A stretch of DNA of 64,000 bases from Acidobacteriota bacterium. GTDB lineage: Bacteria; Acidobacteriota; UBA6911; RPQK01; JAJDTT01. The notes under the pieces are model-generated. The model was not told the DNA's origin. It worked only from the letters and a program-made list of their open reading frames with translations, and made no database searches. The translations under genes were made by a program, and so were the position numbers. How positions within the stretch are numbered: position 1 is the first letter of the stretch; every line of letters starts with the position of its first letter. The stretch spans positions 4,000,001 to 4,064,000 of the forward strand of contig OZ242374.1 in assembly GCA_965209055.1 (NCBI GenBank), in the 5' to 3' direction. Shown one piece after another: positions 13,087-34,427 of the stretch.

Positions 13087-13226
13087 TGCTGCTGCCCGCC
13101 TTCCAATTCTCGTGCGTTCCACTCCGGCATATTGCACAATTATTGCGCCCCTTGGTGACCAGCCCGAATTTCTCACCAGGTCGCTAGGAGTATGATTAAA
13201 AAGAACGGAATTGTACGCTTTTGGAC

Positions 13227-13255
13227 TTGACACCTTCCAGGCACTCAGGTAGTAT
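13227..13255 (+). promoter_or_regulatory. Sigma70-type promoter of the IS1595 transposase
   Basis: TTGACA-17 bp-TAGTAT, followed by GGAGG RBS and ATG at 13273. Confidence 0.65.
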
Positions 13256-13272
13256 GTGCATGGAGGTTGTCA

Positions 13273-14157
13273 ATGAACATCATCACGCTATTCTACTCCT
13301 TCAAGACGCAGGAACAAGCGGTCGAATACCTGGAGAAAGTCCGGTGGAACGGCCAGCCGACCTGCCCCTACTGCGACAGCGTGGCCTGCGGGACACACGC
13401 CAGTTCTGACCGCGCCATGCGCCGCTGGCAGTGCCGCGATTGCAAAAGCACCTTCTCCGTCACCGTGGGAACAATCTTCCACGGCACTCACAAGCCGCTC
13501 CGAGACTGGTTCCTCGTCCTGGGCCTGATGCTCAACGCGAAGAAGTCCGCCAGCGCGTGCCAGATTTCCCGCGACCTGGGCATCCGCCGACCCACGGTCT
13601 GGAGCATGATGCACCGAATTCGCGTTGCCATGGACAGCGAACTGGAACGCTCGCTGCTCTATGGGATCGTCGAAGCCGACGAAACCTATGTCGGAGGAAA
13701 GCCCCGGCCCGGCAACAACCGGAAGCCGATCCGCAAGGCCAAGCGTGGCCGCGGTACACAGAAAACCGCCGTGATCGGGATGGTGGAGCGCGGCGGCAAG
13801 GTCATTGCCAAGCCCACGGACCGCCTCACGTCCAACGCGATCTCCAAGTTCGTCGGGGCCTACTTGGACCATGACGCCTCGCTGCTCATCACGGACGAGT
13901 TCAAGGGATACAAGGCGGTCCGGGAAACGGTCCGGTCCGCCGTCATCAATCACTCTCGCCAGTTCGTGGACGGGCTCACGCATACGAACACGATTGAAGG
14001 GTTCTGGTCCCTGGTCAAGAGAGCGTGGTACGGGACACATCACCACTACTCGAACAAGTACATGCCGCTCTATCTGGCGGAGTCCTGCTTCAAGTACAAC
14101 GTCCGCAAGATGGATCACGCCTTCGGCTACGCCTGCAAGGTGCTCGTGGGCGCATGA
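13273..14157 (+). CDS. IS1595-family (ISXO2-like) DDE transposase
   Basis: Zn ribbon CPYC...CRDC; GIVEADETYVGG; LITDE; INHS; HTNTIEGFWSLVKR. Confidence 0.95.
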   Translation: MNIITLFYSFKTQEQAVEYLEKVRWNGQPTCPYCDSVACGTHASSDRAMRRWQCRDCKSTFSVTVGTIFHGTHKPLRDWFLVLGLMLNAKKSASACQISRDLGIRRPTVWSMMHRIRVAMDSELERSLLYGIVEADETYVGGKPRPGNNRKPIRKAKRGRGTQKTAVIGMVERGGKVIAKPTDRLTSNAISKFVGAYLDHDASLLITDEFKGYKAVRETVRSAVINHSRQFVDGLTHTNTIEGFWSLVKRAWYGTHHHYSNKYMPLYLAESCFKYNVRKMDHAFGYACKVLVGA

Positions 14158-15623
14158 ACCGCCTCTACTACGGCGACAATCTCACGATCATGCGTGAGAT
14201 GCCGCTCCGGTCTGTCGATCTCATCTATTTGGATCCGCCCTTCAACTCGAAGCGGAACTACAACCTCATGTATCGGACCATGACGGGAAAGCCCGTCCCG
14301 GAGTCCGTCGAGGCGTTCTGCGACACCTGGGAGATGGACCCGGAGAAGGAGCAAGCGGCCCGCCAGATGCCCGTCCTGATGCGGGAACACGGCGTAGATG
14401 ACTACTACGTCGAGTTCTGGCGGCTCTGGATGCAAGCTCTTCGGTACACGCAGCCCCACCTGCTGGCCTACCTGATTTACATGGTGGAGCGGCTGCTTCA
14501 AATGAAGGTGCTTCTCAAATCCACCGGTTCGATTTTTCTGCATTGCGATCCCACGGTGAGCCACTACATCAAAGTGATGATGGACGGCGTATTCGGCCAC
14601 CGGAATTTCCGAAACGAGATCATCTGGCACTACGGGCAACGGACGGCCATTTCTAGGCGCCGATTCAGTCGGAAGCATGACGTGATCCTGTTCTACTCGA
14701 AAAGCCCGAAAACCGTTCTCAATCCGATAACTCAGACGTGGAAGAAGGAGGAATTTCTGGCACGTCGCCACGATGTCAAAACGGACGAGGACGGGAGAGA
14801 GTTCATTTGGACGGATGGTGGAGCAAAAGGAGTCCGCTACAAGCGGATGGTCGATGACGTGATTGCCAAGGGCAAGCCCCTCGATTCAGTCTGGGATATT
14901 CCGATCCTGAATTCAGCCGCGAAAGAGCGCCTGGGCTATCCGACCCAGAAGCCTAGCCGACTTCTCAAGCGGATCATCAAGGCGAGTTCCAATTCGGAGG
15001 ACGTGGTATTCGACCCCTTTTGCGGATGCGGAACGACCATCTATTCGGCCCACGAGCTGGGCCGGTCCTGGATCGGCTGCGACATTGCCATTCTGGCGGT
15101 CCGTCTGGTGGCCGACACTTTGGACGCTCGCTATGGGTTGCGGGATGATCGCCACTACCAGGTCACCGGAATTCCGGCCAGCTATGACCAGGCCGTGGAC
15201 TTGTTCAAGCGCGACCCGTTCCAGTTCGAGCACTGGGCCGTGGAGCGAGTGGGAGGGTTCCCGAATCAGAAGCAGGTGGCGGACAAGGGCATCGACGGCC
15301 GCATCTACTTCGACGCGCCGGACGGCTTGGAGTCCATGGTGCTGTCCGTGAAGGGCGGTCATATCAAGCCCATGGACATTCGGGAGCTGCGCGGCGTCGT
15401 GGAGCGGGACGAGGCACTGATGGCGGGATACATCTGCAACCGGGAGCCGTCCAAGGCCATGCTGCGCGAGGCGGCAATGGCCGGGATGGTCCAAGTCGGA
15501 GAGCACCAATACCCGCACGTCCAGATTCTCACCACGCGGGAGATGGTCAAGGGCAAGACGTTCGAGACGCCAACGCGGATCACGTCGAAGGTCAGGAAGG
15601 GACAGGGCGCGTTCCGGTGGTAG
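14154..15623 (+). CDS. Beta-class amino (N6mA/N4mC) DNA methyltransferase with C-terminal Mrr-like domain
   Basis: DLIYLDPPFNS (motif IV) precedes GYPTQKP and DPFCGCGTT (motif I); C-terminal FQFEHWA...DKGIDG...SVKGG; ATGA overlap with the transposase stop. Confidence 0.9.
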   Translation: MNRLYYGDNLTIMREMPLRSVDLIYLDPPFNSKRNYNLMYRTMTGKPVPESVEAFCDTWEMDPEKEQAARQMPVLMREHGVDDYYVEFWRLWMQALRYTQPHLLAYLIYMVERLLQMKVLLKSTGSIFLHCDPTVSHYIKVMMDGVFGHRNFRNEIIWHYGQRTAISRRRFSRKHDVILFYSKSPKTVLNPITQTWKKEEFLARRHDVKTDEDGREFIWTDGGAKGVRYKRMVDDVIAKGKPLDSVWDIPILNSAAKERLGYPTQKPSRLLKRIIKASSNSEDVVFDPFCGCGTTIYSAHELGRSWIGCDIAILAVRLVADTLDARYGLRDDRHYQVTGIPASYDQAVDLFKRDPFQFEHWAVERVGGFPNQKQVADKGIDGRIYFDAPDGLESMVLSVKGGHIKPMDIRELRGVVERDEALMAGYICNREPSKAMLREAAMAGMVQVGEHQYPHVQILTTREMVKGKTFETPTRITSKVRKGQGAFRW

Positions 15624-15739
15624 GAGCCCCTTTAGTCCAAAAGCGTACAATTCCGAAAAAGAATCTGTTTTCGAGCAATTTAACGAATTCCCCCAAGGTT
15701 TCTCCGCGACAGACTGCGCTGGGCGCGCGCTCGCTGGTC

Positions 15740-31208: not shown

Positions 31209-32169
31209 TCGGACCTCAAGTCTGCGGTTCCTGATCCCGGCGGCTCAAGGCTTCCGGATTCCGGAGCCGCAGGCGAATATTCAACGACACCGTAACCCCG
31301 GACCGCAGGAACGAAGCCGAACATAAAGAGCGTCCCGTAGGGTGTCAAGATTGGAGGAACCAATGAGATCTTCGCGTAATGTTGGCGAGTGCTTCGGTGA
31401 CTTCGAGCAGACGGGCCGCGGGTCCACAGGTTGGGGTTCCACGGCAATGGGTGATCAAGCGTTCCCAATTGCCGCTCCCTTGCTCTATTGGCAAGGAGAC
31501 GGAGGTCACATAGGTATTCCCATTTGCAAGTGCGTCTGGTCAGCGGTAGATTAAGTGAAGATAGTCGCTGGCAGCGTGCTGTCGGCTCAAGGGCTGCTCT
31601 TCGGAGCGGCCCTTGCTATTTCTGGCTGTTCCTATGCGAACCAGAGTCTACTCATTTGTCCTGGGCGTTGGCAGGTTGCACCGAAGTTGGAGAATGTTGC
31701 GAGTCACTTCCGGCACATCCGCCCGGCGATGTTGAAAGCCGCGCAGTTTTCCAACCCGCTTCCAAGCACGATGATTTCAAAGCCGCCTAATTGGTAACGC
31801 GCTAACTACGGGAATGCCATCGTGAGCCAACCTCTCCTCAGAGTTCCGTGATGCCTTCATAGATGAAGGATGACTCAAAGATGCTTGTTCAGAGCCGTCA
31901 CAAGGGTGTTTTGTCATGCCATGTCTCCGGCAGCTTGAATGGGAACCCTGCTGTTCTTCCGCTGTGGCCGGACAATGGTGTGGTTGTGCGGCCGACCAGT
32001 GCGGCATACCCGACGGAAATGGCCTCAACTTCAGACTCTCTCTTTTTGGTCTGGTTCCGGTCGTCCTTCTACGGTATCGCTTCTTGACCCGTTGCCGGGC
32101 CTGTGGTTGCCTCAGGGCCTATTTACTTGACTAGCCAAGACGTCACACATTTGTTCGACAATTCCCTCC

Positions 32170-33351
32170 ATGAAAGCTCGCGCCACTATCCAGTGCAGAG
32201 CGAAGCTGTCCAAGGGCGGACTCCGGCGATTGGACTGGGCGAGGTCGGTCCTGAATCGCCTGTACAATGCTGCCTTGGAGGAACGCAAGACGGCCTGGGA
32301 ATCCGAGCAACGCGGCGTGACCCTGTACGATCAGATGAAGGGGTTGACGTCCCGGAGGAAGGACGATCCGGACGGGCTCGGGTCCGTGGCGGTCAGAGCG
32401 GAGCGCGGGATGTTGATACGGTTGGACCGGGCCTTCAAGGCGTTCTTCCGTCGCTGCAAGGCGGGGGAGAAGCCGGGGTATCCTCGGTTCCGGCCCATTG
32501 CGAGGATGGAGACCATCGACATCGTCGACCCGATGGCGACTATGGTAAAGAAGCGGGCTCGGGGCTACGCGATCCGGCCCAAGGGTTTCCCGACGATCCG
32601 GATATTTCCGTCCCGGGCGTTGCCGGCCGGATGCCCGTTGAAGGCGCTGCGGATCGTCCGCAAGCCGAGCCGAGTGTATGTGGACTTGACCTACGAGGTG
32701 GAGAAGCAGCTGCTACCGAAGTGCGGGTCTCCGGTGGGGATCGACCTGGGAGTCCGCAAGCAGGCGGTGCTGTCAACGGGTGAGAGGATCAACCGGAATC
32801 GGCGGGACTGGGCGGAGGTCCGAAAGCAGCAGCGAAAGGTGTCCCGGTGCCAGCGCCGGTCGAACCGGCGCCGGAAGCGAGTTCGACGGTTGGCGGCGAT
32901 TCGGTTCCGGGAGAGAGTCCGAAGCCGGAACGCGTGTCATCAGGCCACGACCCGGATCGTCCGTGAGCATGGACTGATCGCAGTGGAGAAACTGAACGTC
33001 CAAGGGATGACTAAGAAGGGCCTGAACAAGAAGGGTCTGAATCGGGAGATCCTCACCCAATCCTGGGGCATCTTCCGCAACCAGCTCCAGTACAAGGCAG
33101 AGTGGGCCGGTCGGGAGTTTGTGGAAGTCAACGCTGCATTCACGTCGCAGGACTGCCACCGGTGTGGCGCCAGGAACCAACCAGGGAGGAGCGAGATGTA
33201 TCGCTGCGTCTCCTGTGGACTCAAAATGGATCGCGACCACAACGCCGCGATCAACCTTCTCAGGGCTGGGGTTTCCGCCCTGGGCGCCGGAACGTGGGCC
33301 GATGGGCCGAGCGTGGCGCCGGAACTGTGTACTGGAAGGCCCAGTGGCTAG
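32170..33351 (+). CDS. tnpB: TnpB RNA-guided endonuclease
   Basis: LYNAALEER; AFKAFF...GYPRFR; RuvC GIDLG, AVEKL and DRDHNAAINL; Zn finger CHRC...CVSC. Confidence 0.95.
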   Translation: MKARATIQCRAKLSKGGLRRLDWARSVLNRLYNAALEERKTAWESEQRGVTLYDQMKGLTSRRKDDPDGLGSVAVRAERGMLIRLDRAFKAFFRRCKAGEKPGYPRFRPIARMETIDIVDPMATMVKKRARGYAIRPKGFPTIRIFPSRALPAGCPLKALRIVRKPSRVYVDLTYEVEKQLLPKCGSPVGIDLGVRKQAVLSTGERINRNRRDWAEVRKQQRKVSRCQRRSNRRRKRVRRLAAIRFRERVRSRNACHQATTRIVREHGLIAVEKLNVQGMTKKGLNKKGLNREILTQSWGIFRNQLQYKAEWAGREFVEVNAAFTSQDCHRCGARNQPGRSEMYRCVSCGLKMDRDHNAAINLLRAGVSALGAGTWADGPSVAPELCTGRPSG

Positions 33352-33368
33352 CCAAGTATATAAGCCCC
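33261..33368 (+). ncRNA. Putative omegaRNA/reRNA scaffold overlapping the tnpB 3' end
   Basis: Three consecutive hairpins (CAGGGC/GCCCTG, GGCGCC/GGCGCC, ACTGG/CCAGT) at the position expected for TnpB guide-RNA scaffolds; boundaries approximate. Confidence 0.55.
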
Positions 33369-33413
33369 ATTGACTCGCAAGCCGCCCGCCGAAGCTGGGA
33401 AGGAGGGAATGGA

Positions 33414-34427
33414 TTGATCGGTCCCCTGGATTCTCGAACCCCTCTGGAATCTGCATCTCCCGGACGTTCCGTCGATTCCGACGTGACTTGGGACTATCTG
33501 AACGCGGTCCAGTACCGGAGGCGACTGGCCACCGGCATGCCCCCCTTGATCATCTCCTGCGCCACCACCGGCGGCCATCAGAAGGCAGAGAATCCGGGCG
33601 TGCCCGTCACCGCGGGAGAACAGGCCGGGACCGCGCCGCAAGTGGCCGCTGCCGGGGCCCAGATCATTCACATCCACGGACGCGACCCCGAAGATCCCAC
33701 CCGGGAGACCGACCGGGCCGAGCGGTACCTGGAGATCAACGCCCGGATCCGGGCCCAGGACCCGGAAATTATCATCGACAACACGCAGGCAGTCGCACCC
33801 ATCGAGTCCACGGACGACGAATTGGGGGGGACGGTCTTCCGTTACGAATCGCTTCCGTTGGAGGCCCGTCCCGAGATCATGGCCCTCAATCCGGGTCCCA
33901 TGACCTTTCGGGGCGGAGGAGATTCTCCCAGCGTGGTCCTGGCGACCACCTTCGATCACACCGAACGGGCGGCGCACGCGCTCCGGGAGCGGGGAATCAA
34001 GCCTCAGGTGTTCCTTTACCATCCGGGTCACCTGGATCTGCTGGAGTATCTGATCACCCGCGACGCGTTGGACGAGCCCTACTTCGTCCAACTGGTCTTC
34101 GGGCAGCAGAGCGGAATCCCGACGAGTCCCGACAACATCCTCTCCATGGTGCGGAACCTTCCTCCGGGTTGCGTCTTCCAGACCTGCGCCCTGGGATTGG
34201 AGGCGGTCCAGGTCAATACGCTGGCCATCCTGCTGGGTGGACACGTCCGCACCGGCATGGAGGACTGCATCGAGTATCAGCGGGATGAACCGGCCCGCGA
34301 CAACGCCCAACTGGTCCGGCGCGTGGCCCGAATCGCCCGCGACCTGGGACGCCGGGTGGCCACGATTCAGGAGGCCCGGAAAATGTTGGGACTGGGGCCG
34401 CCCAGCCAATACCCTTCGGCAACCTGA
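33414..34427 (+). CDS. Beta-keto acid cleavage enzyme (BKACE/DUF849, 3-keto-5-aminohexanoate cleavage family)
   Basis: PLIISCATTG, IIHIHGR and GGHVRTGMED motifs; TTG start after GGAGG inferred. Confidence 0.88.
   Translation: MIGPLDSRTPLESASPGRSVDSDVTWDYLNAVQYRRRLATGMPPLIISCATTGGHQKAENPGVPVTAGEQAGTAPQVAAAGAQIIHIHGRDPEDPTRETDRAERYLEINARIRAQDPEIIIDNTQAVAPIESTDDELGGTVFRYESLPLEARPEIMALNPGPMTFRGGGDSPSVVLATTFDHTERAAHALRERGIKPQVFLYHPGHLDLLEYLITRDALDEPYFVQLVFGQQSGIPTSPDNILSMVRNLPPGCVFQTCALGLEAVQVNTLAILLGGHVRTGMEDCIEYQRDEPARDNAQLVRRVARIARDLGRRVATIQEARKMLGLGPPSQYPSAT

Follow-up and report, generated by a model that had tools for sequence, protein, structure and literature searches.

A tnpB gene between IS1595-type inverted ends as a probable non-autonomous transposon carrying a TnpB/omegaRNA module

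The window analyzed here is a 64,000-nucleotide stretch of the genome of an Acidobacteriota bacterium (contig OZ242374.1). We refer to the genome that holds it as G000 and to its sister genomes as G001-G004. The window contains a unit of 1255 bp (32114-33368) in which one intact tnpB gene lies between 24-nt inverted ends (identical at 20/24 positions), with a degenerate 8-bp repeat outside them (Table 1). The repeat search reported the ends as a 23-nt pair (32115-32137 and 33345-33367, 87%, 20/23), which was the top match among the 25 inverted pairs listed for the region, and adding the tip base gave the element span. The two 8-bp direct repeats agree at 6 of 8 positions. Between the tnpB stop codon and the right end of the element there are 17 nt. 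Genes neighboring the unit encode a sodium:solute symporter, a BKACE enzyme and an amidohydrolase; no transposase gene is present among these neighbors and no recombinase gene was found in the flanks. The whole genome G000 has two tnpB genes only, and a search for Y1 TnpA in it returned just two weak PF01797 matches (30.8 and 23.6 bits, in ORFs of 307 and 394 aa). These results bear out what the original prediction had read from the window, namely a lone tnpB with all three RuvC acidic residues filling a 1255-bp unit, inverted ends matching at 20/23, a degenerate 8-bp direct repeat and no tnpA or serine recombinase nearby. It had also cautioned that a 6/8 repeat is weak evidence by itself. We agree: in a single copy such repeats are suggestive, and it is the empty sites and the other copies that decide.

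Table 1. Features of the tnpB unit and its immediate flanks, in window positions
Feature	Position	Strand	Remarks
Left copy of the 8-bp target-site duplication	32106..32113	.	GTTGCCTC, mutated from RTTGACTC
Left terminal inverted repeat	32114..32137	+	AGGGCCTATTTACTTGACTAGCCA, IS1595-type tip; 20/24 vs right end
tnpB	32170..33351	+	393 aa; RuvC D192/E273/D356 and CxxC..CxxC zinc finger intact
Predicted omegaRNA scaffold	33223..33368	+	RNAalifold covariation; exact 5' and 3' ends assumed
Right terminal inverted repeat	33345..33368	+	TGGCTAGCCAAGTATATAAGCCCC; overlaps tnpB stop codon; 20/24 vs left end
Right copy of the 8-bp target-site duplication	33369..33376	.	ATTGACTC
Presumed omegaRNA guide template (duplication and right flank)	33369..33388	+	Presumed; length assumed

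The product of tnpB matches the Pfam families OrfB_IS605 (63 bits) and Cas12f1-like_TNB (88 bits; accessions PF01385 and PF07282), as well as the NCBIfam model guided_TnpB (NF040570) with 206.6 bits against a cut-off of 100. In a phmmer comparison with ISDra2 TnpB (8exa; E 2e-30), the GIDLG, AVEKL and DRDHNAA motifs align opposite ISDra2's own, whose catalytic residues we take to be D191/E278/D361. The three catalytic residues of the window protein and its two CxxC pairs recur without change in 8 relatives. Across 11 pairs of intact copies, dN/dS ranges from 0.14 to 0.30 (0.16-0.30 for the window gene compared with other copies), and it is 0.37 for the pair L017-L036, which involves a broken ORF. 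Purifying selection acts on the gene in subfamilies that are diverged and multi-copy, and TnpB looks like a functional nuclease. We also considered a TldR-like regulator and discarded this reading, since TnpB keeps its catalytic residues and belongs to a mobile, multi-copy element.

We examined 33 copies of the cassette from five genomes of one genus: the window copy, a second copy in G000 (L002) and 31 loci from four MAGs (of 78 loci). Alignment of homolog flanks, a check proposed at the outset, showed that conservation ends at the inverted ends and that exact 8-bp duplications lie outside them. The terminal inverted repeats are ~24-26 nt long and have the tip GGGG(A/C)TTATA. Both tips were resolved by script in 26 of the 33 copies, and 23 of these 26 have a variable 8-bp duplication (8/8 in 19, 7/8 in 3 and 6/8 in 1, the window copy; none in the other 3). 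Inspection by eye found perfect 8-mers in L037 and L039 as well, giving 21 perfect duplications among the 33 copies. Three to four copies have both tips and no duplication (L020, L033 and L034/L044), and 4 of the 33 are truncated or unresolved. The insertion sites of the examined copies are all different. TnpB is multi-copy, with up to 16 matches in one genome, and G003 contains at least 6 cassettes. Some pairs of copies are near-identical (dS 0.04-0.07) and 19 duplications are still 8/8, which points to recent movement of cassettes in the main subfamily. The window copy itself looks old, with 3-4 mismatches between its ends and a duplication decayed to 6/8, and it may no longer be mobile. We note that all cassettes come from one genus, and features that they have in common by descent, such as the gene order and the position of the RNA, are not independent observations.

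The history of the insertion can be read from the sister genomes. The two flanks of the window copy are contiguous in all four of them, where the left and right flank matches overlap by exactly 8 bp. These empty sites read ...CCTGTG[A/G]TTGACTCGCAG..., with the 8-mer in single copy, and contain neither arm of the inverted repeat and no palindrome. Given the overlap of exactly 8 bp, the repeat around the unit arose as a genuine target-site duplication and has mutated since. The second copy in G000 has ends that match at 18/24 and a perfect AAACGAAA duplication, and at its empty site in G003 the flanks overlap by 8 bp. Empty alleles, which had likewise been proposed as a check, are therefore present for both copies in G000. 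For L002, we also observed adjacent flanks in G001, with an overlap that is not clean, and flank matches ~660 bp apart in G002.

A conserved structured RNA covers the last ~130 nt of tnpB and the right inverted repeat, and abuts the flanking DNA. RNAalifold applied to 16 copies gave 39 pairs, of which 17 show compensatory changes. In this alignment the paired cells make up 96.6%; with slid partners the share was 34-50%, and 0 of 500 shuffles reached 96.6%. The predicted scaffold consists of helices at 33223-33260, 33261-33282, 33283-33320 (which contains an inner hairpin) and 33326-33362; the pairing of the last one reaches into the right inverted repeat. This position recalls other TnpB elements, in which the scaffold is described as ending at the transposon boundary (PMC10711439). 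We also found a 257-bp MITE that has the same ends and a perfect duplication and retains just the omegaRNA region, with compensatory changes. An Rfam scan of 31900-33600 returned only a chance match to ybhL (22.9 bits, cut-off 50), which means that no curated omegaRNA family matched and is not evidence against the RNA. Relatives at 85-95% identity were present in the contigs of four metatranscriptome runs. In the size-fractionated run X24, a 50-nt contig at 33286-33334 has a depth of 7775, against at most 133 across the rest of the gene; contig depths sum over organisms and cannot rank the parts of a gene, uncovered parts carry no meaning, and we take the peak as no more than a hint of an RNA signal.

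We then compared the cassettes with elements that encode an IS1595 transposase. Among 33 scanned loci with such a transposase, 19 have resolved inverted ends of the GGGGATTATATAC type (GGCGATTATTCAC in L108), and the duplication is 8/8 in 18 of these 19 elements. G000 contains five further IS1595-transposase elements of 2.45-7.5 kb with 8-bp duplications; its elements L004, L005 and L008 (3.1-7.5 kb) were located by a genome-wide scan for the tip motif. The transposases match PF12762 and NF033547, with NCBIfam IS1595 scores of 160-190 bits (cut-off 75). The ends of the main cassette subfamily agree with those of a 1762-bp IS1595 at 24/26 positions on the left and 19/26 on the right, and this IS1595 is intact, multi-copy and present in the same two genomes as the main subfamily. 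For the window copy, the closest ends in G000 belong to a 4.8-kb IS1595 transposon (G000 1716560-1721358; 17/24 on the left and 19/24 on the right). The IS1595 at 13206 in the window, already noted as having different ends, indeed carries ends of another sequence (CGGAATTGTACGC...). The search for IS1595 transposases with matching ends that the original prediction called for was thus successful within the same genomes, at 24/26 for the main subfamily and 17-19/24 for the window copy. The window unit itself encodes no IS1595 transposase. A tblastn search with 3 transposases detected none in the flanks of 188 TnpB loci (78, 30 and 80), and none of the 188 loci contained an element that combines tnpB with an IS1595 transposase. 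With no IS1595 transposase in the unit or in the flanks of TnpB loci, the cassette is at most a non-autonomous member of IS1595.

We consider it very probable that the unit at 32114-33368 is a non-autonomous IS1595-type transposon whose only cargo is a TnpB/omegaRNA module. An IS1595-family transposase encoded elsewhere in the genome most likely moves the cassette in trans, as the original prediction had proposed. Homolog ends, empty alleles and IS1595 elements with matching ends all support this proposal at the level of sequence, and its trans component relies on the ends and the duplication length that the cassettes and the IS1595 elements have in common. The unit inserted into an intergenic site, where a staggered cut left the 8-bp duplication. 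The IS1595 DDE transposase, made elsewhere, would bind the cassette ends and move the cassette. Transcription through the right end would then yield an omegaRNA whose guide consists of the 8-bp duplication followed by the right flank. The TnpB-RNA complex could recognize and cut the unoccupied allele (left flank, one 8-mer, right flank), after which recombination with an occupied copy would bring the cassette back or spread it.

The flanks of the cassettes carry a one-sided signature. A G occupies position -1, left of the duplication, in 22 of the 23 script-scored cassettes, and it does so on the left side only. In transposase-bearing IS1595 elements, G is found at this position in 9/24 cases on the left side and in 16/48 when both ends are counted (Fisher p = 3e-5 and 4e-7, respectively), and the G content of the genome is 31%. 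Along with the preceding G, an A at the first base of the duplication is seen in the TnpB orientation only. The duplication is otherwise variable; the constraint concerns only the preceding G and the first one or two bases. The signature may be a TAM or part of one; in the mechanism outlined above, the near-invariant G and the A at the first base would act as such. Typical TnpB TAMs are 4-5 nt long. A TAM of one to two bases would be unusually short for TnpB, which weakens this reading, and the signature could have another cause.

Tentatively, we suggest that the cassettes are hyperparasites of IS1595, which would combine a borrowed, TnpB-free DDE transposase with RNA-guided homing, a self-programmed guide and TAM-filtered retention. 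With the omegaRNA joined to the right inverted repeat, the 8-bp duplication and flank of any new insertion would become the guide with which the nuclease is programmed. Only insertions that have a minimal TAM on their left (a G, in most cases GG, followed by an A-W start) would be retained or driven, and the flank signature would be one-sided for this reason.

It is rather unlikely that TnpB is instead passive cargo with no working link to the DDE cycle, in which case movement would depend only on the transposase and the nuclease would have some other role or no role. Ends of the same type do flank assorted cargo in G000, including a methylase, several ORFs without a Pfam match, a complete restriction-modification pair (D12 methylase and NotI-like enzyme) and, in a transposase-less cassette whose ends match the right end of the tnpB unit at 19/24, a trypsin-like peptidase as the only gene. 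Cargo capture and cargo-only derivatives are therefore common in this genome. The OMEGA module has also been argued to add little to cut-and-paste DDE elements, and the benefit of a homing nuclease is described as less obvious there because DDE excision already leaves a double-strand break (PMC13565253). However, a covarying omegaRNA scaffold is fused to the right inverted repeat, which implies that the transcript must read into the flank, and even the 257-bp MITE retains the RNA part. Passive carriage is also at odds with the purifying selection on TnpB and with a G|A signature that is specific to one orientation and is not seen in the transposase-bearing elements.

We regard it as improbable that a non-IS1595 transposase sharing the tip and the 8-bp stagger moves the cassette, or that the family is a fossil that is no longer moved. 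The main subfamily shares 24/26 end bases with an intact, multi-copy IS1595 in the same two genomes, and its near-identical copies and perfect duplications point to recent movement. In favor of this alternative, the window copy is decayed and its exact end subfamily has no perfectly matching transposase element (no IS1595 element with this exact end was found in G001 or G002), and in G003 many cassettes coexist with a single IS1595 match that has an internal stop.

An ordinary solo tnpB of the IS200/IS605 (IS1341-type) or IS607 type sitting in a pre-existing palindrome, with the ends and the repeat being host sequence, is scarcely credible: although a TnpB on its own is typical of IS1341-type elements (PMC13565253) and the window copy shows a repeat of only 6/8 and ends of 20/24, all four sister empty sites hold one copy of the 8-mer without a palindrome, the same ends accompany the gene at >20 different sites with perfect 8-bp duplications, IS200/IS605 and IS607 are described as yielding neither inverted ends nor duplications (PMC13565253, PMC6188088), and the genome contains no convincing Y1 transposase and, in the flanks of the unit, no recombinase gene of the IS607 kind.

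TnpB within DDE transposons with inverted ends, including solo copies mobilized in trans, has been described previously (Altae-Tran 2023, PNAS, PMC10691335). The arrangement is thus less new than the original prediction claimed in presenting it as a candidate new element. IS1595 is not mentioned as a TnpB partner in the main text of PMC10691335 (0 mentions) and is absent from the list of DDE partners named in PMC13565253 (IS630, ISL2 and IS1031), and none of the papers that our search found treats a TnpB-IS1595 link by title or abstract. Like the TnpBs of the DDE-associated branches DDE-1 to DDE-6 as defined in PMC10691335, the window TnpB is enclosed by the symmetrical inverted terminal repeats of a transposon, and its distance of 17 nt falls within the <250 bp between the TnpB 3' end and the transposon end that is used for these branches. 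Solo TnpBs of these branches are reported there to have almost the same ends as elements with a transposase, which points to movement in trans, and the same holds for our cassettes. Some members of these branches have a DDE transposase gene beside tnpB; at the 188 TnpB loci here none was adjacent. Unlike the DDE branches, the partner here is IS1595, the helper IS carries no TnpB and the cassette duplication is 8 bp long and variable.

The cassette also resembles IS1341-type members of IS200/IS605, such as ISDra2, in having a TnpB of ~390 aa with a RuvC D-E-D triad and a zinc finger, an omegaRNA scaffold that overlaps the tnpB 3' end and stops at the right boundary, and mostly copies without a transposase. 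IS200/IS605 elements are described as having asymmetric (subterminal) hairpin ends, making no duplication and being inserted by Y1 TnpA 3' of a fixed 4-5-nt target (PMC13565253). The cassette differs from them in its conserved 24-26-nt inverted ends and its 8-bp duplication, in a genome that lacks a convincing Y1 TnpA. Cargo as such is familiar from IS1595, for which ISfinder has the subgroups 'ISNwi1 + passenger' and 'ISPna2 + passenger'. Like these passenger-gene elements, of which the examples in G000 measure 2.45-7.5 kb, the cassette has inverted ends, an 8-bp duplication and cargo between the ends; unlike them, it has no transposase (lost or never present), and its cargo is an RNA-guided nuclease with the RNA fused to one end. 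A further parallel is Fanzor, a group of eukaryotic TnpB homologs whose host elements are cut-and-paste DDE transposons that also have inverted ends and a duplication; in Fanzor, too, the guide-RNA scaffold spans the end repeat and the duplication (PMC10711439, PMC13565253). According to the same sources, Fanzor elements occur in eukaryotes or viruses, and their duplications are usually short, of fixed sequence (TA, TTAA) and part of the TAM. In contrast, the cassette is bacterial and its 8-bp duplication is variable.

TnpB is the ancestor of Cas12, and its benefit to IS605/IS607 elements is seen in their restoration once they have been excised without a scar. The cassettes bear on whether and how TnpB helps cut-and-paste DDE transposons. 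The pairing of TnpB with IS1595-type ends is rare in bacteria, and PMC13565253 describes prokaryotic examples of TnpB in DDE transposons in general as rare. One genus here offers a clean case, with >20 independent exact-8-bp insertions, empty alleles and a candidate helper IS with nearly identical ends, and in addition a MITE reduced to the RNA region, a putative omegaRNA joined to the repeat that the transposase would bind and a one-sided signature that predicts a TAM. If the cassettes are indeed hyperparasites, they would be a bacterial counterpart of the Fanzor-bearing DDE transposons and a natural system in which to study how a guide-RNA nuclease serves a transposon that generates duplications. 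More speculatively, a compact nuclease of 385-393 aa with a possibly very short TAM may be of interest for genome editing. The analysis also shows that IS1595-type ends in these bacteria serve as a shuttle for cargo-only cassettes in general, with restriction-modification genes and a peptidase among the cargo.

Outside the genus, a metagenome scan with the TnpB alignment yielded no close relative (best 43-46% identity), and no inverted ends were seen for TnpB relatives at <=40% identity. The end-repeat scan covered 20 of the 80 metagenome loci kept. Nothing convincing for inverted ends was found in the remaining 15 scanned loci, while L176/L177 have an IS1595-like tip (GGGAATGATATACC) with no visible duplication and L178/L182 have a different end, accompanied by a 6-7-bp repeat.

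The tnpB gene in the window stands alone and encodes a TnpB that matches the Pfam OrfB_IS605 and Cas12f1-like_TNB domains and scores 206.6 bits against the NCBIfam guided_TnpB profile (cut-off 100). The best natural relative with a solved structure is ISDra2 TnpB (E 2e-30), and the AI-designed nuclease 9yyg tops the solved-structure ranking (E 3.8e-39). The window protein has the triad D192, E273 and D356, as read from the aligned GIDLG, AVEKL and DRDHNAA motifs, and two CxxC pairs. The cassette (coordinates in the table) is bordered by a direct repeat, GTTGCCTC / ATTGACTC, that matches at 6 of 8 positions. Lone gene, triad, unit length, inverted ends and repeat all agree base for base with the original prediction. 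Around the cassette lie genes for a sodium:solute symporter, a BKACE enzyme (starting 42 nt past the right end of the cassette) and an amidohydrolase.

Coordinates of the cassette and of IS1595-related elements in the window and its genome (G000)
Feature	Location	Description
tnpB	window 32170-33351 (+)	393-aa TnpB
Inverted pair	window 32115-32137 / 33345-33367	20/23; best matched of 25 listed inverted pairs in the region
Whole unit, including tip base	window 32114-33368	1255 bp
Window IS1595	window 13206-15655	2450 bp; perfect 22-nt inverted ends CGGAATTGTACGC...; duplication AAAAAGAA
Its transposase	window 13267-14157	
Its N6/N4 DNA methylase-like passenger	window 14025-15623	532 aa
Identical twin of window IS1595	G000 4403285-4405734	duplication AAAACCTT
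L121	G000 1716560-1721358	IS1595 transposon, 4.8 kb
L122	G000 2732331-2739795	IS1595 transposon, 7.5 kb
L123	G000 6041919-6045037	IS1595 transposon, 3.1 kb; transposase, D12 adenine methylase, NotI-like restriction endonuclease
L124	G000 6066994-6068365	1372-bp cassette without transposase; IS1595-type ends; perfect duplication ATTCGATA
L125 (101-357)	G000 4815243-4815499	257-bp MITE; cassette-type ends; perfect duplication TACCCTTT

In each of the four sister genomes the flanks of the window cassette adjoin, and their left and right matches overlap by exactly 8 bp. The empty site reads ...GGGCCTGTG[A/G]TTGACTCGCAGACC... and contains neither arm of the inverted repeat. The imperfect repeat was therefore once a perfect RTTGACTC duplication, the left copy of which mutated later. 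With no repeat arm and an 8-bp overlap, the empty sites rule out an IS605-type insertion into a palindrome. Within its family the window copy is probably old, and it may be unable to move. G000, a single 6.08-Mb contig, contains exactly two tnpB genes. The second cassette (L002) shares 76% nucleotide identity with the first; its ends differ from those in the window yet are inverted (GGGAATTATAAAG... / ...CTTTGTAATTCCC, 18/24), with a perfect duplication, AAACGAAA, immediately outside them. Its site is likewise empty in the sister genome G003, again with an 8-bp overlap.

A scan of the genome collection yielded 78 loci, 31 of which are close copies from four MAGs in the same Acidobacteriota genus. 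We examined 33 copies, and both tips were resolved by script in 26. As anticipated in the original prediction, exact 8-bp duplications lie outside the ends in 19 of these 26; a further three match at 7/8 and one, the window copy, at 6/8, and the duplication is absent in three (L020, L033 and L034). Among the seven copies that the script left unresolved, L037 and L039 have perfect 8-mers by eye and a degenerate left tip, L040, L045 and L053 retain the right end alone, L027 is degenerate, and L044 and L034 are one locus. Each examined copy occupies a different insertion site. Two cassettes from different genomes (L018 and L019) share an identical duplication, ATAAAATA, in unrelated flanks, which is either a coincidence or a preferred target word.

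We located transposases using the profile of the IS1595 DDE domain (PF12762), which matched seven places in G000 and 9, 17, 1 and 1 in the sister genomes. From 33 scanned IS1595 loci we delimited 19 elements of 1.5-2.0 kb with inverted ends of the GGGGATTATATAC type (GGCGATTATTCAC in L108), 18 of them with perfect 8-bp duplications. The commonest, an IS of 1762 bp, encodes a transposase of 335 aa and has inverted ends matching at 26/26. The search for cassette-like ends succeeded here: the commonest cassette subfamily, which occurs in the same two genomes, matches the end of this IS at 24/26 positions on the left and 19/26 on the right. The ends of the window cassette are closest to those of L121 and L124 (17-19 of 24). 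The flanks of the 188 TnpB loci contain no IS1595 transposase. Given the shared ends and the lack of adjacent transposases, the cassette is a cargo-only derivative within a family of cargo-carrying IS1595 transposons, reliant on a transposase made elsewhere. Shared ends, 8-bp duplications and empty sites together support the originally proposed movement in trans, and an IS1595 transposase encoded elsewhere very probably mobilises the cassette. G003 (the genome of L027-L029, L031 and L038) has at least six cassettes and one IS1595 DDE match, which has an internal stop; its cassettes may be stranded.

A tip scan of G000 recovered the elements L121-L125, all with perfect 8-bp duplications. No Pfam family matches the passenger ORFs of L121 and L122 (538, 434, 407 and 186 aa). 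With its methylase and endonuclease bounded by IS1595 ends, L123 is thus a mobile restriction-modification system. The sole gene of L124 encodes a 322-aa trypsin-like peptidase, making this element a second kind of cargo-only cassette. The IS1595 at 13206 has ends unlike those of the cassette, as previously noted.

Judged from its sequence, the nuclease module looks alive. Across 11 pairs of intact tnpB copies, dN/dS is 0.14-0.30. The last ~130 nt of tnpB and the right end share a fold with 39 pairs, the predicted guide-RNA scaffold (omegaRNA); compensatory changes affect 17 of the pairs. Paired cells amount to 96.6%, against 34-50% with slid partners; the slid controls have 2-6 pairs changed on both sides, and none of 500 shuffles matched the observed pairing. 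In the last helix (33326-33362), sequence just 3' of the stop codon pairs with the inner right inverted repeat, so that a single stretch of DNA encodes the scaffold and forms the transposase-binding end. In the MITE L125 the omegaRNA region is kept, with compensatory changes of its own, and tnpB is absent; the element may thus be an RNA-only derivative. RNA-library contigs include relatives of the element and, as contigs, are blind to levels and ends. A 50-nt contig at window 33286-33334, over predicted omegaRNA helices, reaches a depth of 7775 in run X24, a size-fractionated metatranscriptome, and the rest of tnpB ≤133; this is only a hint, because contig depths add up across organisms and are no basis for ranking the parts of a gene.

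The insertion sites carry a one-sided signature, scored in TnpB orientation on 23 cassettes. In 22 of them a G precedes the duplication (the next base outward is G in 14), and the duplication starts with A in 22, followed by A or T; L037, L039 and L125 agree. Transposase-bearing IS1595 elements, oriented by the transposase gene, have G at -1 in 9/24 and the complementary C on the other side in 7/24; versus cassettes, Fisher p is 3e-5 for the left side and 4e-7 for both ends pooled (16/48). These frequencies are at background level (genome 31% G). The way in which the two ends differ varies among subfamilies, across which the signature persists, so asymmetry of the ends is an unlikely cause. 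The signature is most simply read as a requirement for a TAM, the motif beside the target, in the left flank of the unoccupied site. In eukaryotic elements, the guide RNAs of Fanzor extend across both end repeat and duplication (Yoon et al. 2023, PMC10711439). More tentatively, and with somewhat less than even confidence, we suggest that the omegaRNA guide would comprise the duplication plus the right flank, that TnpB would cleave the unoccupied allele beside a G-type TAM, and that recombination would then home or retain the cassette.

Six DDE-transposase-associated TnpB branches, all with inverted terminal repeats, have been described (Altae-Tran et al. 2023, PMC10691335). The text of that paper, as distinct from its supplements, which possibly list further DDE families, names IS630 and has no occurrence of IS1595. 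A 2026 review (PMC13565253) gives ISL2, IS630 and IS1031 as TnpB partners and calls such associations rare. Our literature searches found no link between TnpB and IS1595. Compared with the described branches, IS1595 is a new partner family and the helper itself carries no TnpB. The insertion record is also unusually complete.

At a threshold of E ≤ 1e-40, the cassette TnpB is present in G000 and in 5/8 other genomes of the genus, and in none of the six sister-genus genomes or 26 genomes of the order's other families that were searched. No inverted ends were seen around relatives at ≤40% identity. Those at 43-46% (L043, L178, L182; L176/L177; SAR202-like and metagenome contigs) are likewise lone genes flanked by inverted ends; in one type the tip is IS1595-like, GGGAATGATATACC, and no duplication is visible, and another has GAGACGATTTCAC... 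ends with a 6-7-bp repeat.
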